A stretch of DNA of 64,000 bases. It comes from an uncultured Oscillospiraceae bacterium (lineage in GTDB: Bacteria > Bacillota > Clostridia > Acetivibrionales > DTU013). Both the position numbers and the translations under genes were made by a program. The stretch spans positions 104,263 to 168,262 of the forward strand of contig CAZEIH010000002.1 of NCBI GenBank assembly GCA_964512095.1. The letters are read 5' to 3'. The notes below the pieces were generated by a model. It did no database searches. It saw nothing but the letters and a program-made list of their open reading frames with translations, and was not told the origin of the DNA. This document shows, in pieces, positions 30,694 to 58,388 of the stretch; the first letter of the stretch is position 1; every line of letters starts with the position of its first letter.

Positions 30694-30718
30694 CTTCAAC
30701 CCTCCACCTACATAATAA

Positions 30719-31624: not shown

Positions 31625-31630
31625 AATATA

Positions 31631-32605: not shown

Positions 32606-32609
32606 ATTT

Positions 32610-33800: not shown

Positions 33801-33804
33801 ACTA

Positions 33805-38605: not shown

Positions 38606-39013
38606 TCACTCCGACACCGCTGTTGGAGGATTTTTGACCTGCTGCTTTGCAAGCTTCATTGCCTGTGCCCAGGTATCCCGGAGATCCTTCGCAAAATGCA
38701 GAACTTCCGCAAGTATTCCAGTGTCCTTTTTTATATTAGCTTCAAAAAGCCTGTCCAGCATGTAATCATATAAAAGGGACAGACCTTGGGAAAGCTCATA
38801 CTGCATATCCAGCGTAACCTTGAATTCTGTCAGTATGTCTTGAGCTCTCATAATGCTCTCGTGTGCCTTCTGAATATCCTTGTCCTCAATAGCCCTCTGA
38901 GACAACATGATGAATTTGATAAGCCCATTATATAGTATCAGAGTCAAGTCCTCAGGACTAGCGGTAAAAATAGAATTTTGCTTATAAATATCATATGCAT
39001 TTGAAGTAACCAT
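38606..39013 (-). CDS. fliS: flagellin-specific chaperone FliS
   Basis: 135 aa. AYDIYKQNSIFTASPEDLTLILYNG...LYDYM matches the FliS pattern. Synteny with fliD-fliS. Confidence 0.9.
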   Translation of the reverse strand: MVTSNAYDIYKQNSIFTASPEDLTLILYNGLIKFIMLSQRAIEDKDIQKAHESIMRAQDILTEFKVTLDMQYELSQGLSLLYDYMLDRLFEANIKKDTGILAEVLHFAKDLRDTWAQAMKLAKQQVKNPPTAVSE

Positions 39014-39051
39014 ACTAGCTCCTTTAATAATAATTCATAACAACATTACCA

Positions 39052-41259
39052 CTAATACATAAATTGCTGAGATAGCCATGAACTTTGGGTGTTCATATTG
39101 TTTATAAGTGCTTCCAATTTTGAAAACTGATTATAATAGCTGTTTTCCTTTAAAATTAATTCATCCGTCAATTTAGATATTCTGTCATCGTAATCAGATA
39201 TCTGACTATAAAGCATATTGCTGAATGCTGATCTATCGCCAGCCATACCTGCCTTTTCAAGCAATGCGCCCCTGTGCCCGCCAAGCGTATTAGTGCGGAT
39301 ACTGTCCTGAATCACATCTGAAATCCTAAATATCAGTCCCGATTCCTTGAATCTTTCGGATTTGGATGACGCACTGGTGACTGCAGTACTATAAAGAACA
39401 TCAGATTGCTTAGAAAACAAGCTAAATACTTCGTTGGGATTTTCACTGAGGGCATTTTTTAATTTTTCCTCATCAATATACAATTTGCCTTTGTCCACCC
39501 AGCTGTTGGACTTTATCCCGATAGATGAAAGCGATAAGCCAGACCCGGAAACGCTTTCCACTACTGCGTTACGAAGGTTTGTAGCAATCGAACGGAGAAT
39601 GCTGTCGTTTACAAGCAGTCCTGATTTTGCCTTTTCCTCCCACTGCTTAATATCCTCCTCTGTCATAGCCTCCTTTTGGTCACTAGTCAACGGAGCATAA
39701 GCATACTCTCTTTTTTCCGAAAGCTTTGAATTTATCTTATCCAATACTTCATTGTACTTATCAACAAAACCTTTGATCAGCTCCACGGCCTTTGTAGTAT
39801 CTGAGGTAACAGAAAGCTCGACAGGTCCCGCATTGTCCTTCATCAAATTAAAGGTTATTCCATTGATACTAAAGTTGTTTGTAGAACGCTCTATCGTCTG
39901 TGGACCATTGACACCATCATCAAAGGTAATGCTGGCATCTTCCCCCGCTACATCAGTAGCAATCAATGACAACGAACCCAAAAGCCCTCCAGCAGAATCG
40001 CTTGAGGAAATAGTAGCAGTTACCCCTGTTTTCCTGGTCTCAAGCATAAACTCGTTATTAAGGCTATCATAGCTCATCTTCACGCCTGTAGCTGAATTAG
40101 TGTTAACGGCATTGACTATATCATTCATCGAAGTTGTACGTGAATTGAAACTAAAGCTCTGACCATTTATGTCAAAACTTATATCATCTCCTTCTCCACT
40201 AACAATAAGTGGTATTGCAAAGCTGTCTTTAATATCAAAAATTTTGGCATCCATATTTATCTTATTTGAGTTGTTACCCCCGTTCATGCCTATTGCCGCA
40301 AGGCCTCCATTCTCGGCCATCGATGCTGACACCACCACATTCGTATCTACACTCTCAAGCACCACCTTATTATCAACGTTTTTAACCGTTATCTTCCCTT
40401 CTCCAAAGCCCTCGTCGTCGACCATGGATTGGAGTGCTGCAACCACAGCATCAGTGTCAGCGTAAGTGCCTGTATTGAGAGCAAATTCCTTCGTATCATC
40501 ACCAAGAGTAATCGTAAATCTGTTATTGGACTCAGTAAGAGTTATTCCCGTGCTCAAATCGGTATTAAAAATCGCACCATATCCGGCATTATTTGTGTTT
40601 GCGAATTTCAGAGTGTTGGTACCGTTTGTCTCGAAAGATATCTTGTCACCATCTTTTATGCTCACTGCAACTTTATCAGCTCCGAAAGCAGAATTCAATT
40701 TGCTTTGTAATTCCGCAGCCAATTCATCTATATTTGTTAGTCCATCTGATAAGACTATATCTTTACTGGTACCATTAAATTCGACCCTAAATACGTTATT
40801 ACCCGCCGCACTGCTAATTTCTCTTATCCCATCAGAAGTCAGCGGACTGCTCTCAAGGTTCCCAGCTGCAGCTGAACCATATTTCTTTGCAGTTGTAGCC
40901 GTAATAATGTTTGATATTGTATAGTTACCAGCTTTAGCCCCTGATCCCGCCGAAGCTGTAAAATATAAATTTGTGTCCACCCCGTTATACTTCATACCAA
41001 ATGCATTATAAATGGAAGAATTCCTCATATCGGTAGCCGGCTTCAAAGCATTGAAATACTCATTAGTAAAGCTTTGCAGCGAACTTGTTATCTCTCTGTA
41101 CTGCTCTTGTTTCCACACCAACGTTTGTCTGCTCTGAGAAACTGAATTCACCTTTAGCTTTTCCACCTGCATTAGTTGGAAAACGAGGCTATCCACATCG
41201 AGACCTGATAGACCGGACATTCTAGTAACACTATTATATGTATTATTAATGTAACTCAT
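39052..41259 (-). CDS. fliD: flagellar filament cap protein FliD
   Basis: 735 aa with an N-terminal FliD region (GLDVDSLVFQLMQVEKLKV) and a C-terminal heptad region. Synteny flaG-fliD-fliS. Confidence 0.9.
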   Translation of the reverse strand: MSYINNTYNSVTRMSGLSGLDVDSLVFQLMQVEKLKVNSVSQSRQTLVWKQEQYREITSSLQSFTNEYFNALKPATDMRNSSIYNAFGMKYNGVDTNLYFTASAGSGAKAGNYTISNIITATTAKKYGSAAAGNLESSPLTSDGIREISSAAGNNVFRVEFNGTSKDIVLSDGLTNIDELAAELQSKLNSAFGADKVAVSIKDGDKISFETNGTNTLKFANTNNAGYGAIFNTDLSTGITLTESNNRFTITLGDDTKEFALNTGTYADTDAVVAALQSMVDDEGFGEGKITVKNVDNKVVLESVDTNVVVSASMAENGGLAAIGMNGGNNSNKINMDAKIFDIKDSFAIPLIVSGEGDDISFDINGQSFSFNSRTTSMNDIVNAVNTNSATGVKMSYDSLNNEFMLETRKTGVTATISSSDSAGGLLGSLSLIATDVAGEDASITFDDGVNGPQTIERSTNNFSINGITFNLMKDNAGPVELSVTSDTTKAVELIKGFVDKYNEVLDKINSKLSEKREYAYAPLTSDQKEAMTEEDIKQWEEKAKSGLLVNDSILRSIATNLRNAVVESVSGSGLSLSSIGIKSNSWVDKGKLYIDEEKLKNALSENPNEVFSLFSKQSDVLYSTAVTSASSKSERFKESGLIFRISDVIQDSIRTNTLGGHRGALLEKAGMAGDRSAFSNMLYSQISDYDDRISKLTDELILKENSYYNQFSKLEALINNMNTQSSWLSQQFMY

Positions 41260-41266
41260 AAATTAC

Positions 41267-41641
41267 TCACCTTCTTTCATCTACTAACAATCCTGCCATT
41301 TCCAGCATATTTGCGACCATATCTAATATTTTTTTCGGTGGTATTTCCCTTATTACTTCTTTTGTAGTTTCATCAATGACTTTTATCATTATCTCATTTG
41401 TTTTATCATGTACAGAATATACGAATCTTCTGCTACTTCCTTCAATGGCTTTATTTATTCTCCCGACTGCATCTGCAACTACCTTCTCTGTGATGGGGTA
41501 TTCTGAAGTATCAGAATGAGTTCCGTTCCCATTAGGTGCTAACTTCGGTGAAATAGGTGCAGGCTCTACTACAGGCTTACCCTGTATGTCTACTGTGTTC
41601 TGTCTACTATTGATTGCGGCTTCCGTGCCTAATACTCTCAT
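41267..41641 (-). CDS. flaG: FlaG family protein
   Basis: 124 aa. The C-terminal motif FVYSVHDKTNEIMIKVIDETTKEVIREIPPKKILDM is typical of FlaG. Confidence 0.85.
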   Translation of the reverse strand: MRVLGTEAAINSRQNTVDIQGKPVVEPAPISPKLAPNGNGTHSDTSEYPITEKVVADAVGRINKAIEGSSRRFVYSVHDKTNEIMIKVIDETTKEVIREIPPKKILDMVANMLEMAGLLVDERR

Positions 41642-43094: not shown

Positions 43095-43172
43095 TTAACC
43101 GCCGCCTTCTTGTATAAAAGTATCAGCCAAATATATTAATTAACACTTATTTAAAATATCGTCTTTTTCCTG

Positions 43173-43201
43173 TCAAAGCATAAGCCAATAATGCCGATAA
43201 T
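43173..43201 (+). promoter_or_regulatory. sigma-28/SigD-type promoter upstream of the wbpB/D/E-like operon
   Basis: tCAAA (43173-43177), 15-nt spacer, GCCGATAA (43193-43200), compared with consensus TAAA-N15-GCCGATAT. Lies 41 nt upstream of ATG 43242. Confidence 0.6.
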
Positions 43202-43241
43202 AAAGATGTTACTATTGTATTAAACAAAAGAGGTGACCCAA

Positions 43242-44279: not shown

Positions 44280-44388
44280 ACAGGGGGACGGTTCTACCAG
44301 GGAAACATGAAGGATAAAACATGGGGACGGTTCTACTATTTAGCTTCTTTAGTGAGGAGTGTCACCATACCAATTACCGAGGTGTGAA

Positions 44389-44964: not shown

Positions 44965-44991
44965 ATAATACTAAATCACAGGAGGCTAAGG

Positions 44992-46137
44992 ATGAAAATC
45001 CCGTTAATAGACTTAAAAGCCCAGTATTCAACAATAAAAGGCGAGATAAAGCAAACCATTGATGAGGTGCTGGAATCTCAGCATTTTATACTAGGCTCAA
45101 AGGTAGCTGAACTGGAGCGGGAAATCGCTACCTATAGTCAATGCAAATACGCACTAGGCGTATCGTCGGGAACAGATGCCTTACTGTTGGCTTTGATGGC
45201 GTTAGATATAGGACACGATGATCTGGTTATTACGACAACCTTCACTTTTTTTGCTACAGCCGGATGTATCGCAAGGCTAGGCGCGAAGCCGCTTTTTGTG
45301 GATATCGACCCTGAAACCTTCAACATATGTCCTGAAAAACTAGAAAATCGACTGAAAACCCTGACGAAAGAAGAGCTGTCACATGTAAAGGCTATTATCC
45401 CGGTTCATCTATTCGGACAAATGGCCGATATGGAAAGAATCTTACCCCTCTGCCGCAAATACGACTTGAAAATCATCGAAGATGCAGCACAGGCAATTGG
45501 TTCCGAGTGCCCTTACGCAGGCAAGCTTCGCCGTGCCGGAAGCATTGGCGATATAGGCTGCTTCTCATTCTTCCCATCCAAAAATCTTGGTGGAATAGGC
45601 GATGGAGGAATGGTCGTCACAAATAATGAAGCCCTCTATAGCAAAATGAAAATTCTTAGAACTCATGGCTCCAGCCCGAAATATTATCACAAATTCGTCG
45701 GAGGCAACTTTAGACTCGACGAGATCCAGGCAGCTGTGCTATTAGTTAAGCTGAGTTATCTGGATAGTTGGACTGAAAAAAGGCAAATAAACGCCGGAAT
45801 ATATGACAGCATACTTGGTGGCACCTGTAGCAAAGCCATTATTACACCAAAGCTATTGCCAGAGTACAGGCACATATATAATCAGTATTGTATTAAAACA
45901 GAAAAACGTGATGAACTAAAGTCATGCCTTTCCGATAATGGCGTTACTACAGAAATCTATTATCCTCTTCCTATGCATCAGCAGGAGTGTTTTTCTTACC
46001 TTGGTAATAGAATGGGTGATTTCCCGGCAGCAGAAGAGGCTGCAGCCAGTGTGCTGGCTTTACCAGTATACCCAGAGATGAGCCATGAGGCCTTGGAATA
46101 CACCGCCGGACTTATCAGAGACTTTGCAGCAAAATAA
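44992..46137 (+). CDS. DegT/DnrJ/EryC1 PLP-dependent sugar aminotransferase, WbpE-like
   Basis: 381 aa with AGGAGG upstream. PLP-Lys motif FSFFPSKNLG. Confidence 0.85.
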   Translation: MKIPLIDLKAQYSTIKGEIKQTIDEVLESQHFILGSKVAELEREIATYSQCKYALGVSSGTDALLLALMALDIGHDDLVITTTFTFFATAGCIARLGAKPLFVDIDPETFNICPEKLENRLKTLTKEELSHVKAIIPVHLFGQMADMERILPLCRKYDLKIIEDAAQAIGSECPYAGKLRRAGSIGDIGCFSFFPSKNLGGIGDGGMVVTNNEALYSKMKILRTHGSSPKYYHKFVGGNFRLDEIQAAVLLVKLSYLDSWTEKRQINAGIYDSILGGTCSKAIITPKLLPEYRHIYNQYCIKTEKRDELKSCLSDNGVTTEIYYPLPMHQQECFSYLGNRMGDFPAAEEAAASVLALPVYPEMSHEALEYTAGLIRDFAAK

Positions 46138-46151: not shown

Positions 46152-46469
46152 TTACTTGCGTCCAGCCTCGATTACTTTCAATCTCACCTCATGCCTATCG
46201 CTTTTTTCAATAACCAAATCAAGACTTTCTTCAGCTCTGTCAAGCCTTTTCTCATGCTGGATATATCCATCAAATAGTGTTTTTGTATAGTTGTCAAGTT
46301 TGTTCTTAATTATGACTACACTATTTGACAGTTTTTTAATGTCCGATCTCATTTCATGCTGGTCCTCTGTCAGTTCCTTCTGGCCTTTTTCCAACAAATC
46401 CAGTCTTCCTGTGACCTCCGAATACATTTTCTCTAGCAACTGGTATGTCTTATCCTCCATATCCCCCAC
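46152..46469 (-). CDS. hypothetical coiled-coil protein
   Basis: 105 aa, charged and heptad-rich. Last ORF of the minus-strand sugar operon, with a possible own extended -10 (TGATATAAT) upstream. Confidence 0.45.
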   Translation of the reverse strand: MGDMEDKTYQLLEKMYSEVTGRLDLLEKGQKELTEDQHEMRSDIKKLSNSVVIIKNKLDNYTKTLFDGYIQHEKRLDRAEESLDLVIEKSDRHEVRLKVIEAGRK

Positions 46470-46595: not shown

Positions 46596-47690
46596 CTAAC
46601 TATCTTCATATTCTTCTATTTGCTTTAGTGTAAGGTCATACATATCCTCATCGTCTAGATATGCTTTTACCCAACATGCCGTGAATTCCAGCGTCCTGTC
46701 TATATCAAGCCTGGGGCGGAATCCAAGGCCCTGCATTGCCTTAAAGGAATCAAGCTTCAGACAGTCAGTCTCGTGGGGGTTCTTGCTCCCATCCAACTCA
46801 AAACCTCCATCTTTCCCGAAGTGATAAAGAAGCCTTTTGGTAAGCCATTCAACAGGTTTAATGCTTTCGGTATCAGGCCCAAAATTCCATGGTCCCGAAT
46901 ATTTCAACGCTCCTTCACTGTAAAGCCTCTCAGCGAGAGTCATATACCCATACAATGGCTCCATAACGTGTTGCCATGGCCTAACAGCTTTTGGATTCCT
47001 GATAGAAAGCTTTTCATTTAAAATAATGCTTTTTATGATATCCGGCACCAGGCGATCCTGTGCAAAGTCACCTCCGCCAACCACATTACCCGCCCGAGCT
47101 GTTGCTATGGCAACACCATGCTTCTCATAAGCTGCCACATTAAAAAAAGAATTAATATAAGCTGAAGCTACTAGCTCCTGACACGCCTTACTATTGGAGT
47201 ATGGGTCATAGCCACCCAATCTGTCAGTTTCCCTGTATCCCCAAAAACCTTCGCTATTCTCATAGCATTTATCTGATGTAACTACCACGACAGCCCTAAC
47301 AGAAGGACATCGCCTTATTGAATCCAAAAGATTGACTGTCCCCATTACATTGGTTTCATAGGTTTCTACCGGTCTGTCATAGGAAGTCCTGACAATTGGC
47401 TGGGCTGCCAGATGAAATACTATTTCAGGGCTAGCTGCTTTCATTCCGCGCTCTAGCGCCTCTAAATCCCTTATATCACCAATAACTGAATTTATCCTGT
47501 TACCAACACCACAAATCTCAAACATGGACGGATTTGTAGGCGGCTCCAAAGCATACCCGGTTACATCAGCGCCAAGCTTATTCAGCCATATTGACAGCCA
47601 TGTTCCCTTAAAGCCTGTATGGCCGGCGATGAACACCTTCTTGTCTTTGTAAAAGCTGTTGGTCATTTTGCCACACCCCTCAGACATCAC
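46596..47690 (-). CDS. rfbG: CDP-glucose 4,6-dehydratase
   Basis: 364 aa extended SDR with GHTGFKG and YSNSK motifs. Adjacent pathway genes support the call. Confidence 0.85.
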   Translation of the reverse strand: MMSEGCGKMTNSFYKDKKVFIAGHTGFKGTWLSIWLNKLGADVTGYALEPPTNPSMFEICGVGNRINSVIGDIRDLEALERGMKAASPEIVFHLAAQPIVRTSYDRPVETYETNVMGTVNLLDSIRRCPSVRAVVVVTSDKCYENSEGFWGYRETDRLGGYDPYSNSKACQELVASAYINSFFNVAAYEKHGVAIATARAGNVVGGGDFAQDRLVPDIIKSIILNEKLSIRNPKAVRPWQHVMEPLYGYMTLAERLYSEGALKYSGPWNFGPDTESIKPVEWLTKRLLYHFGKDGGFELDGSKNPHETDCLKLDSFKAMQGLGFRPRLDIDRTLEFTACWVKAYLDDEDMYDLTLKQIEEYEDS

Positions 47691-48598
47691 TTCTCTTCAA
47701 TATTCCGCACCATCTTAATGCCGTCGAATAAACTTATAAGCCTCTGCCCGCTAATTATATTAGGTTCATTCAAATCAATACTTAGTATTTCTCTTCTCCT
47801 GTAATCCCTTTTACCCCAATCTATGTTTAGCTTATTACCATAAACCTCTTCAAAAACGGCGACAACATCTCTTAATTTGCAGTACTCACCAGGCGCAATT
47901 ATAAAAGACTTATGCATGTGAGGCTCTAATTCTTCTACCGCTTTTATCGCTAATAAATATCCTTTCACCACATCATCTATATAAACAAATCCTACGTCCT
48001 GATCACCCGGAGACATTTCTAGCTTTGCTCCACTCTGTACTGCTTTTTTCAGTAGTGTCATAACCTTTGGGCGCGGGTCATATGGACCATATGTATCAAC
48101 AAGTTTGATTGTTACGGACCTGAGTTTTGAAACCTCTCGGTAATATTTCATAATACACTCAAACGCTTGTTTTGTAGCAGCATACAGGTTAACCGGATTA
48201 TAAGCGTCTCCATTATAATTCTGCCAGTATGATCCGGTGTTAATAAAGTAATTGACACCACATGAAATTGCTGCATTTAGAACCTCAGTTCCAAAAAGTA
48301 TATTACTGTTAACTAGTGAACCTATATCCTTTGCTTGATGCTCTGCAACATAAATAGAGGCAAGATGAATTAATATATCTGGGTGTATTTCTTTAAAAAT
48401 ATCATTGAGTTTTTCGGGTTCACTATTGTATATATGTATCTTAACATTGTTCTTTATGTCAGCTAGCAAATCAAATCCAGAAAACGGACGTGCAATTATA
48501 TGAACCTCATAGCCTTCACAAAGCAATGTCCTGGCAATATTTGAGCCAATGTATCCGGTTGCGCCGGTCAATAATACATTCTTCATACTATCCCTCAC
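47687..48598 (-). CDS. NAD(P)-dependent SDR, CDP-4-keto-6-deoxyhexose reductase-like (RfbS/RfbJ-like)
   Basis: Motifs GATGYIGS and YAATK. 4-nt overlap with the rfbG start. Confidence 0.7.
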   Translation of the reverse strand: MRDSMKNVLLTGATGYIGSNIARTLLCEGYEVHIIARPFSGFDLLADIKNNVKIHIYNSEPEKLNDIFKEIHPDILIHLASIYVAEHQAKDIGSLVNSNILFGTEVLNAAISCGVNYFINTGSYWQNYNGDAYNPVNLYAATKQAFECIMKYYREVSKLRSVTIKLVDTYGPYDPRPKVMTLLKKAVQSGAKLEMSPGDQDVGFVYIDDVVKGYLLAIKAVEELEPHMHKSFIIAPGEYCKLRDVVAVFEEVYGNKLNIDWGKRDYRRREILSIDLNEPNIISGQRLISLFDGIKMVRNIEEK

Positions 48599-48633
48599 TC
48601 ACCACCTTATTGGCACCTTTCAATAATGGGTTT

Positions 48634-49368
48634 TCATTTTATGCACTTCAAATATCCATCTGGTGCAACTGTGACTAAAAGCTTATTTTCATAATTATAG
48701 TCTATCTCAAATCTATCAGTCTCTTTTAAAAACTCCCATACAGCGGTTTTTGGATTATCGCCCTTTCCCCATGGCCTGTCTGGGAAGGAAGCCTCTGGCA
48801 TATCCTCTACGATTGTATCGAAAACAACCAAATAGCTGTCTTTAGACACAAGCGGCGAGTATAGTCGTAGTTCCTGCAGAACATGATCATGAGTATGAAG
48901 TGAATCCAAAATGACTAGGATATTTTTTTTGTTTTTCGCAAAAGAGTATACTTTATCTATAACACTTTGTTCAACAGACGAACCCTCTATTAATGTAATT
49001 CTCTTGAACATTTTATGCTTTTCAATTTCTGCCCTGTTATGTTCTCTAATATCTATGTCAATTCCTAATACCTCTCCATCCCCTCCTATGATTTCAAGCA
49101 TTGACGCATGAAAAATCAGTGATCCCCCATGGGCTATACCTGTTTCAATAATTAAATCAGGCTTAACCTCCCAGATTATTTCCTGTAAAGCAATGATATC
49201 CTGAGGATATTGTATTATGGGTCTGCCAAGCCAGGTAAAATTATATGAATACTTGTGCTTAAATCCCTCCGTGAACCAATCTGCTGATAATTTTTTCAAT
49301 TTCTCATTTTCGTTCATCGCCTTGATGCTACGCTGCTTTTCCAATATGAATTCTACATTTCTATTCAT
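48634..49368 (-). CDS. CmcI/cephalosporin-hydroxylase-family SAM-dependent methyltransferase (sugar O-methyltransferase candidate)
   Basis: 244 aa. PDLIIETGIAHGGSLIF and the overall pattern resemble the CmcI family (from memory). Confidence 0.65.
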   Translation of the reverse strand: MNRNVEFILEKQRSIKAMNENEKLKKLSADWFTEGFKHKYSYNFTWLGRPIIQYPQDIIALQEIIWEVKPDLIIETGIAHGGSLIFHASMLEIIGGDGEVLGIDIDIREHNRAEIEKHKMFKRITLIEGSSVEQSVIDKVYSFAKNKKNILVILDSLHTHDHVLQELRLYSPLVSKDSYLVVFDTIVEDMPEASFPDRPWGKGDNPKTAVWEFLKETDRFEIDYNYENKLLVTVAPDGYLKCIK

Positions 49369-49913
49369 ATATCAATTTCTCCCTCTACAATAATTTTGTT
49401 GTAGGACTTATCTCTATCGGAGATGATAGAACAGGGTAATGGCCACTTAATTCCAAAAGCCGGATCATTCCATCTGTAACCCCTGGAGCACTCCGGAAAG
49501 AAAAATTCAGACATCTGGTAAAAAACATCGGTATTATCCTCCAGTGTTTGAAAACCATGCGCATATCCTCCGGGAATATATATCATATTATATTCTGAAC
49601 TGCTGAGTACAACAGATATCCACTTGCAAAAGGTAGGAGAATCAGGCCTAATATCAACAACAACATCGAACAATTCTCCCTTTGTACAGCTAACTAGCTT
49701 AGATTCCTCAAAGGGACTGCTTTGGTAATGCAATCCTCGAATAGTGCCTTTTTTCGAATTATGCGATATATTACTTTGTACAAGCTTTGAATCCAAATTT
49801 CTTTCTGTGAATTCAGAAGCACACCAAGATCTGGCAAAGAATCCCCGTTCATCCTGCTTCTTTTCAATATTAATAAGAAAAACTCCCTGTAATTCAGTCT
49901 CTTGGAATATCAT
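49365..49913 (-). CDS. NDP-4-keto-6-deoxyhexose 3,5-epimerase (RfbC/RmlC cupin family)
   Basis: 182 aa with motifs DERGFF, RGLHYQ and GYAHGF. Confidence 0.85.
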   Translation of the reverse strand: MIFQETELQGVFLINIEKKQDERGFFARSWCASEFTERNLDSKLVQSNISHNSKKGTIRGLHYQSSPFEESKLVSCTKGELFDVVVDIRPDSPTFCKWISVVLSSSEYNMIYIPGGYAHGFQTLEDNTDVFYQMSEFFFPECSRGYRWNDPAFGIKWPLPCSIISDRDKSYNKIIVEGEIDI

Positions 49914-51146
49914 TTAGATTACCTCTATTTCCGGAATAGGTATGATGAATTTTCCTCCCCACTCCCTAATAAATTCTAATTGCTGAATTATTTCATCCTT
50001 GATATTCCATGGCATTACAAATACATACTCCGGTTTTGTCTCCTTAATTTTATCAGGATCCAAAATCGGTATATGTGTGCCAGGTAAATATTTCCCCTGC
50101 TTATACGGATTTCTATCGACTGTAAAGGATATGAAATCAGTTCTTATACCACAATAATTCAAAAGAGTATTCCCTTTCGCCGGTGCTCCATAACCAACAA
50201 TAACCTTTCCATCTTGCTTTAAACTTATTAGCAATTCCAAGATAGAATATTTTATTCTTTTTACATTCTCAGCAAAAAGTTTATATACATTTATACTGTT
50301 TAAGCCTCTGTTTATCTCATCACTCAAGACTTTATCAACAGCAGAGCTGACCTTTTTGTATGTATCTGAAAAGTGCCCCACGTAGATTCGTAGTGAGCCT
50401 CCATGGGTAGGGATTTCTTCAACATCATAAATGCATAAGTCATGTGCCTTGAATATTTTTATTGCTGCTAATAAAGATATATAGGAGAAATGTTCATGAT
50501 ATATCGTGTCAAATTGGTTGCCTTCAATTAGCTTCAATAAATGGGGGAATTCCAAGGTAATTGTTCCACCGGGTGCTAAAATTCTCCTCATACCTTCAAC
50601 AAAATCATTTATGTCAGGCACATGGGCTAAAACATTATTTCCTATGATCAGATCTGCGAATTGCCCACCCTTAGCTAGTTTATTGGCCAGTCCTACACCA
50701 AAAAAGTCAACTATTGTGGGAACTCCCTTCTTTGCAGCACAAGCTGCAACGTTTGCCGCCGGCTCTATCCCAAGAACCAGTATGTCATATTCATTAAAAT
50801 ATTGAAGTAAATAGCCATCGTTGCTAGCGATTTCTATTACATTAGAATCTCTACCAAGCATAAGCTTGCTAATTATCATTTGAGCATATTCTTTAGCATG
50901 GTTAAGCCAACTATCAGAATATGAGCTAAAATATGCATATTCACTAAATATTTCTTTCGGTGTTTGAACATCAATCACCTGAACGAGAAGGCACTCTTCA
51001 CATACCATGGCATGAAGAGGATAGAAAACTTCACTCCTATATAGATTCTTTAAGCTTATATAAGAATTAGATAATGGAGTTATGCCAAGATCCGTGAAGG
51101 TAACCGTTAGTTTTTTTCCGCAAAAACGGCATTTTGCAAAATGCAT
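49914..51146 (-). CDS. NDP-hexose C-methyltransferase (TylCIII-like; Zn-ribbon plus class I MTase plus C-terminal domain)
   Basis: Start ATG at 51146. N-terminal CRFCGKK..(C)EEC zinc module, followed by a SAM-binding fold (VIEIASNDGYLL). Confidence 0.75.
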   Translation of the reverse strand: MHFAKCRFCGKKLTVTFTDLGITPLSNSYISLKNLYRSEVFYPLHAMVCEECLLVQVIDVQTPKEIFSEYAYFSSYSDSWLNHAKEYAQMIISKLMLGRDSNVIEIASNDGYLLQYFNEYDILVLGIEPAANVAACAAKKGVPTIVDFFGVGLANKLAKGGQFADLIIGNNVLAHVPDINDFVEGMRRILAPGGTITLEFPHLLKLIEGNQFDTIYHEHFSYISLLAAIKIFKAHDLCIYDVEEIPTHGGSLRIYVGHFSDTYKKVSSAVDKVLSDEINRGLNSINVYKLFAENVKRIKYSILELLISLKQDGKVIVGYGAPAKGNTLLNYCGIRTDFISFTVDRNPYKQGKYLPGTHIPILDPDKIKETKPEYVFVMPWNIKDEIIQQLEFIREWGGKFIIPIPEIEVI

Positions 51147-51168
51147 TTTATCATCCTTTCCGTGAGAA

Positions 51169-51936
51169 TCACCACACCTTCCATGGAGCTTTTCCGCTGT
51201 CCCACCAATCCTCAAGCTTGATTTTATCCCTTAGCGTATCCATAGGATGCCAAAAACCTGTATGCTTGAATGCTGACAATTGATTATCAGAAGCCAAGTC
51301 CTCCAATGGCTTTCTCTCCCATACTGTATTATCGTCTTCTATAAGACTGAATACTTCCTTCTCCAGTACAAAATAACCGCCATTTATCCAGCTGCCATCC
51401 CCTTGGGGTTTCTCATTGAAGCTGGTTATAAGATTTTTTGTCATATCAAGAGCTCCAAATCTTCCAGGAGGCTGGACAGCTGTTAAGGTAGCTTTTGTTT
51501 TTTGCCTTTTATGGAATGAAACTAGCTTATGGATGTTTACATTACTTACTCCATCACCATATGTAAAACAAAATGTCTCATCTCCTATAAAGTCATTAAC
51601 TCTTTTCAATCTACCGCCGGTCATGGCATCATCCCCGGTATCTACCAATGTAACAGTCCAAGGCTCACAGTGATTACTGTGCACCTTCATTTCGTTATTC
51701 TTCATATTAAAGGTAATATCAGACTGGTGCAGGAAATAGTTGGCGAAATACTCCTTTATCATATAGCCCTTATACCCTAGACATATAATAAATTCATTGA
51801 TATCATAGTAAGAATAAAGCTTCATAATATGCCAAAGTATTGGTTTCCCACCGATTTCCACCATTGGCTTGGGCTTTACAGCCGTCTCCTCACTGATCCT
51901 GGTACCTAAACCACCGGCAAGAATTACCGCTTTCAT
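51169..51936 (-). CDS. rfbF: glucose-1-phosphate cytidylyltransferase
   Basis: Start ATG at 51936 after GAGGAGAGGAG. MKAVILAGGLGTRISEET...KPKPMVEIGGKPILWH is characteristic. Confidence 0.88.
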   Translation of the reverse strand: MKAVILAGGLGTRISEETAVKPKPMVEIGGKPILWHIMKLYSYYDINEFIICLGYKGYMIKEYFANYFLHQSDITFNMKNNEMKVHSNHCEPWTVTLVDTGDDAMTGGRLKRVNDFIGDETFCFTYGDGVSNVNIHKLVSFHKRQKTKATLTAVQPPGRFGALDMTKNLITSFNEKPQGDGSWINGGYFVLEKEVFSLIEDDNTVWERKPLEDLASDNQLSAFKHTGFWHPMDTLRDKIKLEDWWDSGKAPWKVW

Positions 51937-51940: not shown

Positions 51941-54900
51941 TCAACTCCTCTCCTCAAGTACAATTTCCCCAAACCTGTTTTGAGCAACATCCATCAAAGT
52001 ATCCAGTAGTAATGGATACTCATGCTTCAAATAATTAAGGAGTAGCATTGCTTCCTGTTTTGTTCTAACAGTTTCATTAAGCCTCCAATACATGTACCTA
52101 AATACCCTAAAAATAAACCATTTATCTAATTCCTCACGAGAAAATTTACCCATGCCATGGGCTATATCCCCTATTTTTTCCATCTCCTCTATATCCGCCT
52201 TTGCTGTAAGAAGAGCCTTTTCATTGTAATTATCACCTTTGCTTTTAATAGTTGTCCCTGAATTAAGACTAATAGAATCCTTGTGCAATGTGTAAGTCAA
52301 AACAATGTCATCTATAAAGCCCGCATCCCCTTTTAACAATAATCGCAATAATATTGTTAAATCTGCGGCAAGGCAATCAGGATCACATTTTAGTATTTCA
52401 ATTTTATGAGCAATATCTTTTCTAAATAATGTTGTACAAAGGTTAGGCATGTATGGATATTTCTCCATTAAATAATTAATGAAGAATTCTTCTCCGTTTA
52501 TTATCGATTGATAATTTGGCTTTACACGATAGACCTTATTCTTCCCTTCATGGTTATAATAATAGCCTGCAAAAACAAATGCCAATCTACTATTCTCATT
52601 TAACATTTTTACGGCCTTTGAAATGTATGTAGAATCAATGAGATAATCATCGTCGCTTTGGGTCATACAGTAATCGCCCTTAGCAATTTCATAAAATGCT
52701 TTTTTGTAATTCAATGTAGGGCCAATATTTTTTTCATTCCTATTGTAAATCAGCCTTTTCTCATTTTTATAATTATTTGTCACCATTTCATAAGTTCCAT
52801 CATTTGAACAATTATCGGTAACTATTACTTCAATATTAGGGTAATCCTGTTTTAAAGCATTATCAATAGCACGTTTAAGCATATCCTTCCTATTGAAAGT
52901 AGGAATAATTATACTAACCAACACAGGCTTCTCTTGTTCCTTGAATGAGTACATAGTTTTAGGTTTATTGCAAAAAATACTTCGCATTTTTCTTAGTTCT
53001 GGAGCGAGTTTGTCAAGGTTATTACTAATCCCTAATCCTTGCAGCTTTAAAAAATGCACAAATACCTCTTCACTTATCTCTCCAGTCAGATATGCCATAA
53101 GCTCAGTTTCAAAGCTTTCACCATAACCGTATAGCTTTTGGATAAGTGCTGCCCGATTATTCATCCACTCAAGCGCTTCATCTTTTGATGCGATGCCCAA
53201 CTGCAAACAGTGATAACATGCAACACACTGGGCTATTAATCCCAGCGCCAGCTTGTGTGATGATAGTGTCTTACTTAGCGAATCATCTGATGTTCTTCTA
53301 ATATGGACAAGGGATTGTGTCGTACCGAGTTTCATTTCTGGATTGGCAGACAACAACCGCGAAAGCATGACAAAGTCTTCTGCTACTCTGAATTCTTTAG
53401 CAGAAGAATGAACTTTGAGGATATCGGTACATCCAATTGAGCCTCCTGCAAGCATAGCCCTTATTTCGCTATTCGATGCTATATTCTTCAAAACCTCTGC
53501 TGCGCTTCTGTCTTTATAACAGTTTCTGTCGTAACCAAGCTCAATTACACCATTACTAAAATTTAGCAGGTACCGTGGAATCATAAGAATATACTCGTTA
53601 TTTAGCTTCTCAATGTCGATTAATGCTTGTTCTCCATCAATACATAAAAGCATATCATCATCGTCAACAAAGGCAGTAAAGCGTGTCCTTATCTTCTGCA
53701 GACCTGTCCGCCTACTTTCCGCTAAACCCTCATTCAACTGTTTCCATATAATATCAGCATTGTATATCTCTTTGTTATTATTTATGAAGTCCAACTGTTC
53801 CGTCTCTTCAGTAGAGCAGTCATCTACTATCATTTTAGATTGATTTCCTAATTTGAGGCCTTTATCCATATCCTCCTTAAGCATTCTCCCACGGTTATAA
53901 TTTGGTATCAGAACCGTGAGGTTCTTATGCAATAGCTCTGCAGGCTGCTCTTTACTTTCAAGTATATCCTTTACTCTATCAATAATCCTTCGAAATGAAA
54001 GCAGCTCAGATATCTGGCCTGTTATTTTGCCAAGCTCACTCTCCAGTGAGTAGTTTGCTATCACAAACCTTCTATACTCACCAGTCTCATACACCCCACT
54101 GATTACCGCCTCTGCAGCTTCGTCGATTGTATTCCAGATATACTGGTCCGGATATATTTCTCTCGCCCCTACAAAATTATGTATCACAGGCTTAATACCT
54201 TTACACATAGCTTGCATTATACTCAGGTTTTGTGATTCCAGTAAACTGGTACAAAGTATGTAGTTTTTATCTTCCAGCCACTGATTTATATCCTCCTGCC
54301 AACCTTCAAAAATAATGTTCTCTGCAATACCTAATTCTTCCGCCATCTGCCAAAAATATAGCTCATAACGAGGATCCTGGTACTTGCCTGCTATATAAAG
54401 CTTATACCTTTTATCTCTCTTATGTATTGCATAAAAGGTGTGCAAAAGCAGCATCGGTCCCTTTTTATAGTTTATGTAACCCACATATGCTATGTTGAAG
54501 CCATTATTCCTCTTTCTAAAGGGATATCGGCCAACGTCGATTCCGTTTGGAATAACTACAGTTTTCTCAGATGCTAAACTCCTGCATCCTGTTAAAACAT
54601 ACTCCCTGATATGCTCAGCGATAAAAACTACTTTGTCCACATTTGTCCATGTAACCTTCTGTGTATAATCAGTAAAGGCTTCATAGCTATGGAGCCTGCA
54701 TATAATCTTCCTTTGCTGGGCCAAAGGCAGCCTGCTCCCATAAGCCACCAGTTCATCGCACCATTCAAACCAACAAATATCGGCCCATTCCATGCCTTCA
54801 TCTATTTGCTTGAAATCACCTACTATTATCTTTCTAACCCAGTAATCATCTAATAATCCTTTGATTATATCTCCAAGAAAGCTATCCATTCCGGCCTTGA

Positions 54901-55327
54901 CAAAAATAACAATCTTTGCACGATTTTCTACAGCGAGACTGTCATCCAGTTCTTTAAGCCTGTTGAGTGCAGCTTCCACATTCTGCTTTTGAGTATTGTC
55001 TCTAGCAACTGTACAAGCCTTGCTGTACATCATATTAGCTGTCTTATATTGGCCCCGCTGCTCATTGACATATGCAAGATTAAAAAGTAAATCAAAATGG
55101 AATGAGTCCCCCTTAAGCCCTTCTGTAAGAAGATCCTCAGCCCCATCAAAAGAACCCTCTAAAATATGTATGATCGCCATCATAGAGCAAACCTCAGGAT
55201 CTCCAGGAATCTTTTCTGCTATTTTGTCCAAGGCAGCTCTTGCTTCGATAAGGTGTCCGCCCTCTATCAGTTTTTCAATTTTTGACATTACAGCATTCAT
55301 CCTCTTCCCTTGCTCCTGGCTAATCAT
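51941..55327 (-). CDS. giant multidomain glycosyltransferase: TPR + GT4 + GT2 + GT2
   Basis: Start ATG at 55327 after GAGGTG. N-terminal TPR repeats. GT4 C-domain with an ExxxxxxE-type motif (SLLESQNLSIMQAM). Two GT2 modules (LTVLIPNYNR..FVDDDD; VSIIIPTFNR..QSDDD). Confidence 0.8.
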   Translation of the reverse strand: MISQEQGKRMNAVMSKIEKLIEGGHLIEARAALDKIAEKIPGDPEVCSMMAIIHILEGSFDGAEDLLTEGLKGDSFHFDLLFNLAYVNEQRGQYKTANMMYSKACTVARDNTQKQNVEAALNRLKELDDSLAVENRAKIVIFVKAGMDSFLGDIIKGLLDDYWVRKIIVGDFKQIDEGMEWADICWFEWCDELVAYGSRLPLAQQRKIICRLHSYEAFTDYTQKVTWTNVDKVVFIAEHIREYVLTGCRSLASEKTVVIPNGIDVGRYPFRKRNNGFNIAYVGYINYKKGPMLLLHTFYAIHKRDKRYKLYIAGKYQDPRYELYFWQMAEELGIAENIIFEGWQEDINQWLEDKNYILCTSLLESQNLSIMQAMCKGIKPVIHNFVGAREIYPDQYIWNTIDEAAEAVISGVYETGEYRRFVIANYSLESELGKITGQISELLSFRRIIDRVKDILESKEQPAELLHKNLTVLIPNYNRGRMLKEDMDKGLKLGNQSKMIVDDCSTEETEQLDFINNNKEIYNADIIWKQLNEGLAESRRTGLQKIRTRFTAFVDDDDMLLCIDGEQALIDIEKLNNEYILMIPRYLLNFSNGVIELGYDRNCYKDRSAAEVLKNIASNSEIRAMLAGGSIGCTDILKVHSSAKEFRVAEDFVMLSRLLSANPEMKLGTTQSLVHIRRTSDDSLSKTLSSHKLALGLIAQCVACYHCLQLGIASKDEALEWMNNRAALIQKLYGYGESFETELMAYLTGEISEEVFVHFLKLQGLGISNNLDKLAPELRKMRSIFCNKPKTMYSFKEQEKPVLVSIIIPTFNRKDMLKRAIDNALKQDYPNIEVIVTDNCSNDGTYEMVTNNYKNEKRLIYNRNEKNIGPTLNYKKAFYEIAKGDYCMTQSDDDYLIDSTYISKAVKMLNENSRLAFVFAGYYYNHEGKNKVYRVKPNYQSIINGEEFFINYLMEKYPYMPNLCTTLFRKDIAHKIEILKCDPDCLAADLTILLRLLLKGDAGFIDDIVLTYTLHKDSISLNSGTTIKSKGDNYNEKALLTAKADIEEMEKIGDIAHGMGKFSREELDKWFIFRVFRYMYWRLNETVRTKQEAMLLLNYLKHEYPLLLDTLMDVAQNRFGEIVLEERS

Positions 55328-55382
55328 TCCAATCACCTCTTGGCCCCTTTTTCATTGGTTAATGCTCCTTCTACTATATACT

Positions 55383-55430: not shown

Positions 55431-56201
55431 TTATCTCAGTAATGACAATACATTCTGTGGTGATTGATTTGCCTGTGCCAACATTGCCGTACCAGCCTGT
55501 ACCAGTATGTTGTTCTTCGTGAATGTTGACATTTCTTCTGCCATATCAGTGTCTCTTATACGAGATTCTGCAGCCTGTAGGTTCTCTGCAGTGGCCTTAA
55601 GGTTCCTGACAGTAGACTCTAGTCTGTTCTGCAGTGATCCGTATGTAGCTCTTGCCTTGTTGACATTTGTAATAGCAGTATCAACAGCAGATAAACTGGA
55701 TGAGCTGGTCAAGCCCTTGATACCAGTAGGAGATGTTGCAGTGATTGCAAGTGTATCAGCGGCATCATTTATTGCTATACTTACCGAAGTGGTGAGGACG
55801 TTTTTGCCATTAAACTTTGTTTTGTCGAAAATGTTATCAATTTCCAATCCAAGCTGGGTCATTTCCAGTTTAAGGTTTGTAACGTCATCACTGGAGTATG
55901 TGCCATTAGCTTTCTGTACACTTAGCTCCTTAAGTCTTACGAGCATGTTACTGACTTCGTCCAGTGCGCCTTCAGCGGTTTGTATAAATGAGATACCATC
56001 CTGTGAATTCCTGGCTGCCTGTCCGAGACCCCTAATCTGTGCTCTCATCTTCTCGGAAATTGATAAGCCAGCAGCATCGTCTGCTGCACGATTGATTCTT
56101 TTACCAGATGATAACTTCTCCATTGACTTGCTAGAAGCTCCATTTGTGTTGAACAACTGGTTACGGGTGTTAATTGCAGAAATGTTGTTGTTAATAATCA
56201 T
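55431..56201 (-). CDS. fliC: flagellin (short form lacking a large variable domain)
   Basis: 256 aa with N-terminus MIINNNISAINTRNQL..SSGKRINRAADDAAGLSISEKM and C-terminus MLAQANQSPQNVLSLLR. The central segment is Ser/Thr-rich. Confidence 0.93.
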   Translation of the reverse strand: MIINNNISAINTRNQLFNTNGASSKSMEKLSSGKRINRAADDAAGLSISEKMRAQIRGLGQAARNSQDGISFIQTAEGALDEVSNMLVRLKELSVQKANGTYSSDDVTNLKLEMTQLGLEIDNIFDKTKFNGKNVLTTSVSIAINDAADTLAITATSPTGIKGLTSSSSLSAVDTAITNVNKARATYGSLQNRLESTVRNLKATAENLQAAESRIRDTDMAEEMSTFTKNNILVQAGTAMLAQANQSPQNVLSLLR

Positions 56202-56447: not shown

Positions 56448-58388
56448 CTAATCATTTTTTTCAAACTCTTGGACACCTTCCCTATGAGGGAATAGGTCAT
56501 CCATGTGCTTTTTCATATAGCATGCCATATACTGGTTGTTTTTCGCTGCCTCGGAGTAATACCGAATAGCTGTTTTAATATTAGCCTCTTCAATAGAAGC
56601 CATTGCATAATTTAGTGTAACAAAAAATCTATCTTCAGACTCATCAAGGGTGCTATAATACAGCCTAAGTCTTTCCGCCTTATATAACAGATTAACATAG
56701 CTTATTCCTCTTTCAATGTACAATTTGAAAAGTGAGCTGTATTTTTCAGATACTTCTATTTTTGAATTCTTTGTTTCAGCAGCTTCTCTAAATAATAAAA
56801 CAAATAATATACATATTGAAACCCTCAGGCTGTTATAGTCATCCTCTCGTACATTTTCTCCAGCAACATAGTCTTCGAAAAATTCCTTCAGCTCGCCTTT
56901 CATATCTATCATTTTGTTTAAATACTGTTTTATTTTCGCCTTCCCCATTTTTTTAATGGCGGAAATAACAGGCCTGGGCCTTTTATCTACGTCCAGAAAA
57001 AACTCTGCATAGTAGTCAGGCAGCTCATTAAAATCAGTCTCTCTTATCAGTTTATCAATTTGCTGTGGTTTATCCGCATATAAACCAAGCCTGTGTTTGT
57101 TAAGGCTTGAATAAATATCTTTACCTTTTCTAAACTCAGACTCTACCCTTTTCTTATCTGTAGTGCTATAATTGACGATTTGACCTTCTATTGTGCTTAC
57201 TATTTTCCCCTTTAAATCATTATCTGTAGCCTTCTTCTCAATAAGATCAGCCAGGTCTGTAAACCTTTCTAACTTTAGCAGGGCTTTTGCAGCTATTAGC
57301 AAGCCCTTTTCTTTGTCACTTATCTGAATCGCAGTATCATATACCTCATCATATTTCTGACTGCTGTAATACTCATTGGCAATAAAGAATAATGCATTGT
57401 CTAAGAATGTCTGTCCTAAAAAAAACACTTCCACATGTGGGTTTGTGGATATTGACAAAGTATCATAACGACTTGCCAAGTCAATGTACTTTAAATAAGC
57501 CTCCATTGATTCCTGCTTTTTATCTAAATTACTCAAGGATACTGCCATTATATAATATAAGTCAATAAACTCGGGCTGAAGTAGCAGGCCCTCTTTACTT
57601 ACTTTAATTGCCTCGGTGTATTCATTGTTTTGCAAAGAGATCAGAGCATATGCGCCGTATATAAAGATTGCTTGCTTCATGATTTGAGGCTTACCAACAA
57701 TTAATCGATATGCTCTGCGTATTTCCTCCAAGGCCTCTGTCATATCTTCGTGGGTGCTATAAGTTTTGGCGAGCTGGAATCTGTAATAGGGATTATCCGG
57801 GTTCTTTTTAAGCTCTGCTTTCAAAATTCCGCCAGTCCGGATAAACTTTCTTTCTCTTATTTCCTTATTACCGAATAAATATCCATAATGATCAAAATAG
57901 ACATTAGTATTAACTATCGGTGCCTTATATACAGGTTGATTATGTACTGAACCATCATAACGAAAATCTCCATCATTTCGAAATACCCTCTCTTGCTGTA
58001 TAAGGGTAAAGCTTCTATTTGCAGTAAAGTTCTTAATTCTGCAGGTTAAGGTATTTGCATGTTTCCTGTTTTCTGCGATATCTTTATATAGCTGTAATGG
58101 GTCTTGAATGACTTCATCTGCATCAAGTATAAGAATAAACTCCCCTTTTGCATATGAAATTGTGATGTTTCTCATTTCCGAAAAGTGATTTGTCCACTCA
58201 TGAAAGAACAGCTTTTCTGTATATTGGCCAGCGATATTTACAGTATTGTCACTAGATCCTGTATCAACTATTATCAGTTCAACATCTCTTTTTTCTATTA
58301 GTTGGCCTAAAGAATCAAGACATCTTTTGAGGTTCTTTTCTTCATCCTTTACCATCATACAGATGCTTATCAAATATTCATATCCCAT
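56448..58388 (-). CDS. GT2-family glycosyltransferase with C-terminal TPR repeats
   Basis: 646 aa with an N-terminal GT2 module (ISICMMVKDEEKNL..IVDTGSSDNT..ILDADE) followed by TPR-like helical repeats. Confidence 0.8.
   Translation of the reverse strand: MGYEYLISICMMVKDEEKNLKRCLDSLGQLIEKRDVELIIVDTGSSDNTVNIAGQYTEKLFFHEWTNHFSEMRNITISYAKGEFILILDADEVIQDPLQLYKDIAENRKHANTLTCRIKNFTANRSFTLIQQERVFRNDGDFRYDGSVHNQPVYKAPIVNTNVYFDHYGYLFGNKEIRERKFIRTGGILKAELKKNPDNPYYRFQLAKTYSTHEDMTEALEEIRRAYRLIVGKPQIMKQAIFIYGAYALISLQNNEYTEAIKVSKEGLLLQPEFIDLYYIMAVSLSNLDKKQESMEAYLKYIDLASRYDTLSISTNPHVEVFFLGQTFLDNALFFIANEYYSSQKYDEVYDTAIQISDKEKGLLIAAKALLKLERFTDLADLIEKKATDNDLKGKIVSTIEGQIVNYSTTDKKRVESEFRKGKDIYSSLNKHRLGLYADKPQQIDKLIRETDFNELPDYYAEFFLDVDKRPRPVISAIKKMGKAKIKQYLNKMIDMKGELKEFFEDYVAGENVREDDYNSLRVSICILFVLLFREAAETKNSKIEVSEKYSSLFKLYIERGISYVNLLYKAERLRLYYSTLDESEDRFFVTLNYAMASIEEANIKTAIRYYSEAAKNNQYMACYMKKHMDDLFPHREGVQEFEKND

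Follow-up and report, generated by a model that had tools for sequence, protein, structure and literature searches.

In a 64,000-nucleotide window of the genome of an uncultured Oscillospiraceae bacterium (assembly GCA_964512095.1, contig CAZEIH010000002.1, positions 104,263 to 168,262; "the window" denotes this whole stretch, and positions are counted from its first letter), six contiguous genes at 46596-51936 probably encode a pathway to a CDP-activated, branched and methylated 6-deoxy-L-hexose, which would be a building block of the O-linked glycan of flagellin. This reading is based on homology, conserved catalytic residues and gene context. The enzyme families and the tailoring logic are already known, and what is new here is the combination of CDP activation, C-branching and a presumed flagellin acceptor.

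All six open reading frames (ORFs) lie on the minus strand, intact and tightly packed, and adjoin the flagellin region. In the direction of transcription they encode a glucose-1-phosphate cytidylyltransferase of the RfbF/DdhA type (51169..51936, 255 amino acids (aa), TIGR02623), an NDP-hexose C-methyltransferase (C-MT) of the TylC3/TcaB9/MtmC family (49914..51146, 410 aa, PF08421 and PF08484), an RmlC-like cupin epimerase (49365..49913, 182 aa, PF00908 and TIGR01221), a methyltransferase of the CmcI/rhamnosyl-O-methyltransferase family (48634..49368, 244 aa, PF04989), an extended short-chain dehydrogenase/reductase (SDR; 47687..48598, 303 aa, PF01370) and a CDP-glucose 4,6-dehydratase of the RfbG/DdhB type (46596..47690, TIGR02622). 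These assignments come from profile scans against Pfam and NCBIfam, with curated equivalog cutoffs where given below, and all six proteins cover their profiles end to end, hence the module is intact. A first-pass annotation had named the same six enzymes in the same interval; both the ORFs with their coordinates, including the ATG start of the cytidylyltransferase at 51936, and the enzyme assignments held up, the latter against the curated profiles. Neighboring genes overlap by 4 nt at 47687-47690 and 49365-49368, abut at 49913/49914 and are otherwise separated by 4-35 nt, a spacing that single operons typically show. For the C-MT, the start codon is the ATG at 51146, which is preceded by a good ribosome-binding site (GGAAAGGA), and not the TTG at 51215; the true start of the dehydratase may be Met9 at 47666.

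The cytidylyltransferase matches the TIGR02623 equivalog with 460 bits against a cutoff of 300 (profile 1-255 of 255), carries a GGxGTR motif at its N-terminus and is 63-86% identical to the cytidylyltransferases found beside C-MT homologs in other phyla. The dehydratase reaches 483.5 bits against a cutoff of 278 in TIGR02622 (profile 1-351 of 352) and retains the motifs GHTGFKG, D140-K141 and Y164xxxK168. The epimerase matches PF00908 (1.7e-62) and TIGR01221 (177 bits, cutoff 156) and has the His/Lys/Tyr/Asp set of RmlC, namely H62 (in RGLH62YQ), K72, Y132 and D168; among solved structures it is closest to genuine RmlC (1e-42), followed by NovW (7e-25) and EvaD (1.5e-23).

The C-MT combines a zinc-binding domain (PF08421, 6.6e-21), a class I S-adenosylmethionine (SAM) domain (PF13489, 1.1e-11) and PF08484 (1.9e-65). 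In a search of the Protein Data Bank (PDB), its closest solved relatives were MtmC, KijD1 and TcaB9 (E-values from 3e-87 to 2e-64), all of them sugar C3-methyltransferases without exception. Residues 5-408 align with residues 12-414 of MtmC (3e-87), and full-length identity amounts to 36% with MtmC and 32% with TcaB9. The four zinc-ribbon cysteines, C6/C9/C49/C52, have their counterparts in the Cys pairs of TcaB9 and MtmC, and Y70, Y72, Y216, E218 and H219 are invariant in an alignment of 170 sequences that includes these two proteins. Four of these residues, Y70/Y216/E218/H219, correspond to the TcaB9 active site Y76/Y222/E224/H225, in the numbering reported in a mutant study, which is offset by 2 from the deposited chain. 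On this evidence, the C-MT most likely methylates a 4-keto sugar at C3. At alignment position 175 (His181 of TcaB9, about 50622-50624 in the window), 107 of the 170 homologs have His and 63 have Gln, and the window C-MT is of the His type. An RfbF-type cytidylyltransferase is present at 52 loci, all of the His type, and at none of the 63 Gln-type loci, of which 38 adjoin another kind of nucleotidyltransferase, with 33-40% identity to RfbF. Position 175 may thus be a marker of nucleotide specificity, and the His at this position would agree with a CDP-sugar substrate.

The SDR (PF01370, 3.6e-34) matched no specific NCBIfam family, and it carries the motifs TGATGYIGS, S123 and Y139xxxK143. Arg37 stands at the end of β-2, where NAD+-retaining epimerases carry an acidic residue; this would point to the use of NADPH and hence to a role as reductase, so that the protein is read as a putative NADPH-dependent C4 ketoreductase. 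The site of its action is suggested by the closest relatives of the module. Comparison loci, drawn from genomes and metagenomes and each holding a C-MT homolog, were numbered L001-L168. The nearest C-MT homologs, 66-69% identical, are all metagenomic and are also the nearest neighbors of the window C-MT in the 170-sequence alignment. Two of these loci (L082 and L089) hold all six genes in the same order with a big glycosyltransferase ahead, and in L082 the six genes are followed by Wbp-like genes, flaG and fliD. In L083 and L085, the SDR alone is replaced by a DegT aminotransferase, while the cytidylyltransferase, C-MT, RmlC-like, CmcI-family and dehydratase genes are kept. Since an aminotransferase takes the slot of the SDR, the SDR would act on the C4 keto group, and this swap is the best available evidence for that assignment. 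It also indicates that the pathway passes through a 4-keto-3-C-methyl intermediate, which would be either reduced or transaminated. Further genes at the aminotransferase loci point to different substituents on the C4 nitrogen: L085 (5917-8987) adds a PglD-like acetyltransferase, L108 (4596-7768) has a formyltransferase, L006 (7034-9467) a GNAT protein, and L083 (9585-18013) adds an AMP-ligase, a small ORF, LuxE and LuxC, a set that suggests a long or unusual N-acyl group at C4. Taken together, the L083, L085, L108 and L006 variants suggest a family of 4-acylamino-3-C-methyl sugars akin to kansosamine.

The CmcI-family protein matches PF04989 with 1.1e-92 (profile 2-204 of 206), and its sole solved homolog is CmcI (6e-10). 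Its gene is kept in the C4-amino variants L083, L085, L108 and L155. Where C4 bears an acylamino group, only O-2 or the tertiary O-3 would be left as acceptor, and by analogy with Rv2959c, vinelose and kansosamine, O-2 is the most likely site of methylation.

The proposed pathway can be laid out as follows. The cytidylyltransferase would convert glucose-1-phosphate and CTP to CDP-glucose, from which the dehydratase would form CDP-4-keto-6-deoxy-D-glucose. The C-MT would then deprotonate the carbon beside the 4-keto group and place the methyl group of SAM on C3 via an enediolate. In the next step, as the order is proposed here, the RmlC-like cupin would invert C5 and lead into the L series: after C-methylation C3 is quaternary, so that C5 alone would be epimerizable, and as the epimerase is co-conserved with the C-MT and the configuration at C3 is reset by methylation, a C5 epimerase and thus an L-sugar is the most economical assumption. 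The SDR would reduce the 4-keto group with NADPH; the configuration of the product at C3 and C4 may be talo, as in vinelose, manno or another. The CmcI-family enzyme would O-methylate a free hydroxyl, most likely O-2, either on the CDP-sugar or after its transfer. Finally, a domain of the 1131-aa multi-glycosyltransferase protein or the GT2-TPR protein encoded next door, which have four glycosyltransferase domains between them, would add the sugar to a Ser/Thr-linked glycan in the center of flagellin. The proposal that the set suffices to lead from glucose-1-phosphate to a CDP-6-deoxy-3-C-methyl-O-methyl-L-hexose, made before from the gene content, is thus supported by homology, catalytic residues and comparative context.

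The flagellar setting of the module, likewise reported in the first-pass annotation, is evident from both flanks, with the flagellin gene and its glycosyltransferases on one side of the cassette and flaG/fliD on the other. On the minus strand, the module is preceded by a flgK-like gene, flgK, flgL, DUF6470, fliW, csrA, a 110-aa ORF, a 646-aa GT2-TPR protein, flagellin and the 1131-aa multi-glycosyltransferase; it is followed by a 105-aa ORF (minus strand), WbpB/WbpD/WbpE-like genes (plus strand), a nucleotide-sugar dehydrogenase, flaG, fliD, fliS and an FlgN-family gene (minus strand). The region is a typical Firmicute flagellin glycosylation island, with sugar-nucleotide and glycosyltransferase genes between the flagellin gene and flaG/fliD/fliS, and this layout is shared by L082, L085 and the cultured Paenibacillus zeisoli (L088, GCA_003994465.1). 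The flagellin O-glycosylation islands of other Firmicutes (Clostridioides difficile, Listeria with GmaR, Paenibacillus alvei and Clostridium botulinum) are built alike, with a GT2-TPR gene by flagellin and sugar genes between fliC and fliD.

The flagellin (Hag type, 256 aa, 55431..56201, minus strand; Flagellin_N 2e-43, Flagellin_C 1.9e-31) is encoded 3.5 kb upstream of the six genes and is the presumed glycan acceptor; its central segment 130-175 contains 35% Ser/Thr compared with 20% in the whole protein, which is the sole hint in the sequence at glycan attachment. The 646-aa GT2-TPR protein (56448..58388, minus strand; Glycos_transf_2 1.2e-18 and TPR) has weak similarity to the peptide S-glycosyltransferase SunS, and counterparts of the same architecture adjoin flagellin in L083 and P. 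zeisoli, making it a candidate for the initiating glycosyltransferase directed at flagellin. The 1131-aa protein (51941..55336, minus strand) comprises, by Pfam, TPR, GT4 and two GT2 parts, namely TPR_19, Glycos_transf_1/Glyco_trans_1_4 at 276-398 and Glycos_transf_2 in two stretches, the best at 808-943, with a further GT2-like match at 465-560. Its orthologs, 55-59% identical, stand directly upstream of the cassette in L082, L083, L085 and L089, and it is a candidate for the enzyme or enzymes that would assemble the flagellin glycan and add the branched sugar to it.

Beyond these relatives, the C-MT family is large. It comprises at least 8000 clusters at 90% identity (E<=1e-20) and 4,724 clusters at 50% identity (E<=1e-30), with at least 595 confirmed matches among species-representative genomes, and homologs of about 60% identity occur in Cyanobacteria, Chloroflexi, Nitrospirae, Proteobacteria, Bacteroidota, Firmicutes and an archaeal metagenome-assembled genome (MAG). 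The earlier statement that branched-chain sugars seldom occur outside antibiotic pathways hence does not hold for the genes; it still applies to documented structures. Neighboring genes were counted at 61 genome loci in which the C-MT homolog is flanked by 5 kb or more in either direction: an RmlC-like gene was present at 49, an RfbF-type cytidylyltransferase (at least 50% identity) at 27, a CDP-glucose dehydratase ortholog at 11 and a CmcI-family gene at 6, while all four occurred together at 5 (Nitrospiraceae, a Bordetella-like genome, Longimicrobiaceae, Paenibacillus sambharensis and a gammaproteobacterial MAG). The core of cytidylyltransferase, dehydratase, C-MT and RmlC-like gene thus occurs repeatedly in different phyla, and some of these cassettes also have CmcI. 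C-MT homologs were also found on 158 plasmids, including Sinorhizobium megaplasmids and megaplasmids of the Bacillus cereus group; homologs on the latter (e.g., NZ_CP129006.1 162741-163955) and on many rhizobial megaplasmids are 54-57% identical. The B. cereus-group copy has a sulfotransferase and a GT2 gene in its vicinity, with no cytidylyltransferase annotated in its sparse gene table. On pSymB of S. meliloti, comparative genomics has listed ddhA, ddhB and an "NDP-hexose 3-C-methyltransferase" together (PMC4053727). In the non-flagellar cassette of Thermincola sp. (L087, GCA_029980365.1), a second, divergent Methyltransf_14 C-MT (12674-13855), 25% identical to the first, is located between the SDR and CmcI genes, a hint that the sugar may bear two C-methyl groups or some other additional modification.

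Cassettes in flagellar loci appear to have been recruited independently, several times. The P. zeisoli locus has the order flgK-flgL-DUF6470-fliW-csrA-flagellin-GT2/TPR-TPR/GT2-cytidylyltransferase-dehydratase-C-MT-RmlC-acetyltransferase-SDR-flaG-fliD-fliS-fliT, a Gallionella MAG (L006) the order cassette-DegT-GNAT-unknown-TPR/GT41-flagellin-flaG, and the metagenomic locus L108 the order TPR/GT41-cassette-formyltransferase-CmcI-DegT-fliD-unknown-flagellin-flaG-fliS. In the alignment, the C-MTs of these three loci are nearest to those of non-flagellar cassettes, and their gene order is cytidylyltransferase-dehydratase-C-MT-RmlC, compared with cytidylyltransferase-C-MT-RmlC-CmcI-X-dehydratase in the clade of the window, X being the variable slot. 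Both observations argue for repeated recruitment, and a single origin of the flagellar-locus cassettes was rejected on these grounds.

Several observations weigh against the proposed pathway or its flagellar destination. The proposal draws on homology and gene context, and a scan for promoters and terminators that might delimit the operon gave counts not above those in shuffled sequence, so that the operon boundaries follow from gene spacing alone. The solved enzymes in the C-MT comparisons were all C3-methyltransferases, so that methylation at C5, as by the NovU-type members of the family, keeps a small probability. The CmcI-family protein failed the NCBIfam equivalog for rhamnosyl 2-O-methyltransferase (NF045824; 109.7 bits, cutoff 400), hence it is to be seen by profile as a family member and not as an ortholog of the mycobacterial rhamnosyl O-methyltransferase; only two of the three acidic metal ligands of CmcI align in it. 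The best solved-structure matches of the SDR are 4-epimerases and dehydratases, at an E-value of only about 1e-13. A role as sugar epimerase was considered on the strength of these matches and appears less likely, given that the 4-keto group needs resolving, that relatives have a C4 aminotransferase instead, and given Arg37. Nor is the SDR orthologous to its counterparts in other cassettes: the window protein (47687-48598) shares 22% identity with the SDR of Thermincola (L087, 11764-12672) and shows no match to that of P. zeisoli (L088, 12255-13076), whereas identity is 45-77% for the other genes of the cassette. The reductase slot thus seems to have been filled independently between cassettes, and the stereochemistry at C4 may vary between lineages. 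Lastly, the cassette stands near flagellar genes at only 1 of the 61 genome loci and at 1 of 21 metagenome loci with adequate flanks; as it is mostly non-flagellar, position is the sole argument for flagellin as the target.

Among the alternatives, the one that survives best, although we consider it unlikely, concerns the last tailoring step: the CmcI-family enzyme might act on another glycan residue or on another hydroxyl or amine acceptor, and the cassette product would then be an un-O-methylated 6-deoxy-3-C-methyl-hexose. The failed equivalog cutoff is in line with this, as is the absence of CmcI from P. zeisoli and most cassettes (6 of 61 have one), which makes the gene look like an optional accessory. 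CmcI itself acts on cephalosporin and Rv2959c on glycolipid-bound rhamnose, and the characterized members of the family thus use non-nucleotide substrates. However, where the gene is present at the examined loci it lies inside or beside the cassette, in some a few kb downstream of the RmlC-like gene, and CDP-vinelose was reportedly isolated already O-methylated at the nucleotide level.

A narrower alternative is that the product is exactly CDP-vinelose (6-deoxy-3-C-methyl-2-O-methyl-L-talose) and the module the missing vinelose gene set. CDP-vinelose of Azotobacter vinelandii is a nucleotide sugar reportedly known since the 1960s from work by Okuda et al. The six enzymes are sufficient for it at the family level, with CDP activation, the 6-deoxy function, the 3-C-methyl branch, the L series and one O-methyl group all matched; but vinelose is an Azotobacter nucleotide sugar while the module stands in a Gram-positive flagellar island, and neither the L-talo configuration nor the 2-O position can be read from sequence. 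The configuration at C3 and C4 would be set by the C-MT and by the ketoreductase, which has no characterized ortholog and varies between cassettes; L-manno or other isomers fit equally well, and exact identity with vinelose is accordingly held to be improbable. The description of the product as vinelose-like, given in the first-pass annotation, therefore stands as a chemical class, whereas identity with vinelose does not follow, as the C3/C4 stereochemistry and the O-methyl position are unreadable and the ketoreductase is not orthologous. A literature search, from which subscription journals were mostly out of reach, found no genes assigned to vinelose. No Azotobacter was among the best 80 of the at least 595 C-MT matches, in a scan that was not aimed at this genus, nor among the best 120 matches to a gammaproteobacterial CmcI, mostly unnamed metagenomic proteins, and neither result decides the link.

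A second natural sugar fits the same logic. The N-acyl-kansosamine of the Mycobacterium kansasii lipooligosaccharide (LOS) is a 4,6-dideoxy-2-O-methyl-3-C-methyl-4-acylamino-L-manno-hexose. Vinelose had been put forward as the only classical CDP-linked sugar of this type, but it is probably not the only relevant precedent, as the LOS cluster of M. kansasii includes, among genes unique to this species and absent from M. marinum, a glucose-1-phosphate cytidylyltransferase, an epimerase/dehydratase, a rhamnose epimerase and a methyltransferase (PMC4403928). L083, L085, L108 and L155 have the 4-amino/N-acyl version of the window cassette, a likeness by gene content. In contrast to kansosamine with its 4-NH-acyl group, the window ketoreductase would yield a 4-OH group; a glycolipid accepts the sugar in M. 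kansasii, and flagellin is the presumed acceptor here.

Less probable still is that the module feeds another glycoconjugate, such as an S-layer protein, a cell-wall polysaccharide or the capsule, and that its flagellar position is incidental. Most homologous cassettes do lie in general polysaccharide clusters, such as that of Thermincola, and at 60 of the 61 genome loci the 10 kb around the cassette contain no flagellin gene. In the window, however, the cassette is placed between the flagellin and glycosyltransferase genes and flaG/fliD in one transcriptional direction, and the same embedding recurs in at least seven further loci of at least three lineages (L082, L085, L088, L006, L108 and probably L083 and L089). 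Among the genes scanned (35993-63929), moreover, there are none for Wzx/Wzy, an ABC transporter or a lipid-carrier priming glycosyltransferase. The main chemical alternative, in which the C-MT would act at C5 and the RmlC-like protein as a 3-epimerase to give a CDP-5-C-methyl (gem-dimethyl) 6-deoxyhexose by the noviose logic of NovW/NovU/NovS, is very unlikely: NovU-type C5-methyltransferases belong to the same Pfam family, an epimerase, a C-MT, a 4-ketoreductase and an O-methyltransferase make up the noviose enzyme set too, and homology between NovW and the epimerase can be recognized (7e-25), but every solved relative of the C-MT is a C3-methyltransferase, vinelose and kansosamine, the two known natural sugars tied to CDP chemistry or to such clusters, are 3-C-methyl, and the epimerase is far nearer to genuine RmlC than to NovW.

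The preferred pathway, C3-methylation of a CDP-linked 4-keto sugar for flagellin, has counterparts in two described systems. The dTDP-L-mycarose and D-tetronitrose pathways (TylC3/TylK/TylC2, MtmC, TcaB9, KijD1) follow the same logic of C3-methylation, 5-epimerization and C4-reduction with C-MTs that are 32-36% identical, but use dTDP and 2-deoxy or 3-amino substrates, belong to actinomycete antibiotic clusters and have no CmcI-type O-methyltransferase. The rfb/ddh pathway to CDP-3,6-dideoxyhexoses in Salmonella and Yersinia shares the RfbF/DdhA and RfbG/DdhB equivalogs, whereas its 3-deoxygenation by E1/E3 (DdhC/DdhD) would be replaced in the module by C-methylation and epimerization. The cassette is widespread, yet a full-text literature search that covered few subscription journals found no characterized CDP-dependent sugar C-methyltransferase. 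The solved members of the C-MT family in the PDB search all stem from antibiotic sugar pathways, which use dTDP-sugars.

Flagellin glycans affect filament assembly, motility, immune recognition and phage adsorption. Known flagellin sugars are nonulosonic acids, HexNAc and derivatives of (methyl)rhamnose or viosamine, with methylated deoxyhexoses and di-N-acetyl-hexuronic acids among the parts known from Firmicutes, and to our knowledge no C-branched sugar or CDP-hexose donor has been described in Firmicute flagellin glycans. The full-text search, with the same coverage, found no C-branched sugar on flagellin either, in keeping with the earlier remark that none was known there. If the proposal is true, the sugar, C-branched and derived from a CDP donor, would represent a chemical class new to flagella, and as its 174.09 Da residue would be isobaric with di-O-methyl-deoxyhexose, it may already have been mis-assigned in existing glycoproteomic data. 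The chances are about even that the cassette is, more broadly, the genetic basis of vinelose- and kansosamine-type sugars and that its C-branched sugars recur, so far unrecognized, in flagellin glycans of Clostridia, Paenibacillus and Proteobacteria, with C4 diversified (OH, NH-formyl, NH-acetyl, NH-acyl), perhaps for antigenic variation or phage evasion. This could close the orphan pathway to CDP-vinelose, left from the 1960s, and explain the biosynthesis of kansosamine. The compact gene set and the cultured carrier P. zeisoli make the lead directly testable, and its recurrence in flagellar loci of several lineages, together with the C4-variable design, makes it worthwhile, even though the rarity of the genes was overestimated.

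A second sugar pathway occupies 41787-46137 of the island and probably makes a donor of the UDP-2,3-diacetamido-2,3-dideoxy-hexuronic acid type. It consists of a nucleotide-sugar (UDP-sugar) dehydrogenase (41787-43094, minus strand), a GFO/WbpB-like oxidoreductase (43233-44279, plus strand), a WbpD-like hexapeptide N-acetyltransferase (44359-44964, plus strand) and a WbpE-like DegT aminotransferase (44992-46137, plus strand); genes 72-84% identical stand beside the cassette in L082 and L085. Downstream, the island is bounded by flaG, fliD and fliS (38606..41641, all on the minus strand), of which flaG (41267-41641; Pfam FlaG) and fliD (39052-41259; FliD_N and FliD_C) were identified by profile and fliS (38606-39013) was assigned by eye from its sequence. 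The island is slightly AT-richer (39.5% versus 42.1% GC), a difference too small to infer horizontal transfer.

Some minor features of the window may be added. The 105-aa ORF downstream of the dehydratase (46152-46469) is a predicted coiled coil with no match in Pfam or NCBIfam, and the acidic 110-aa ORF (58401-58733) overlaps the GT2-TPR gene at its start. At 28697-35799, genes for a SAF/FlgA-like protein, two T2SSF proteins and a T2SSE ATPase make up a block that resembles Tad/type IV pilus loci. A 664-aa Ser/Thr protein kinase is encoded immediately upstream, and its ORF overlaps that of the ATPase by about 130 nt. Finally, the flagellar rod/hook C-terminal domain occurs in two consecutive genes, a 359-aa ORF (62850-63929) followed by the canonical 544-aa FlgK (61209-62843), a pair that may represent a duplicated or split hook-associated protein.

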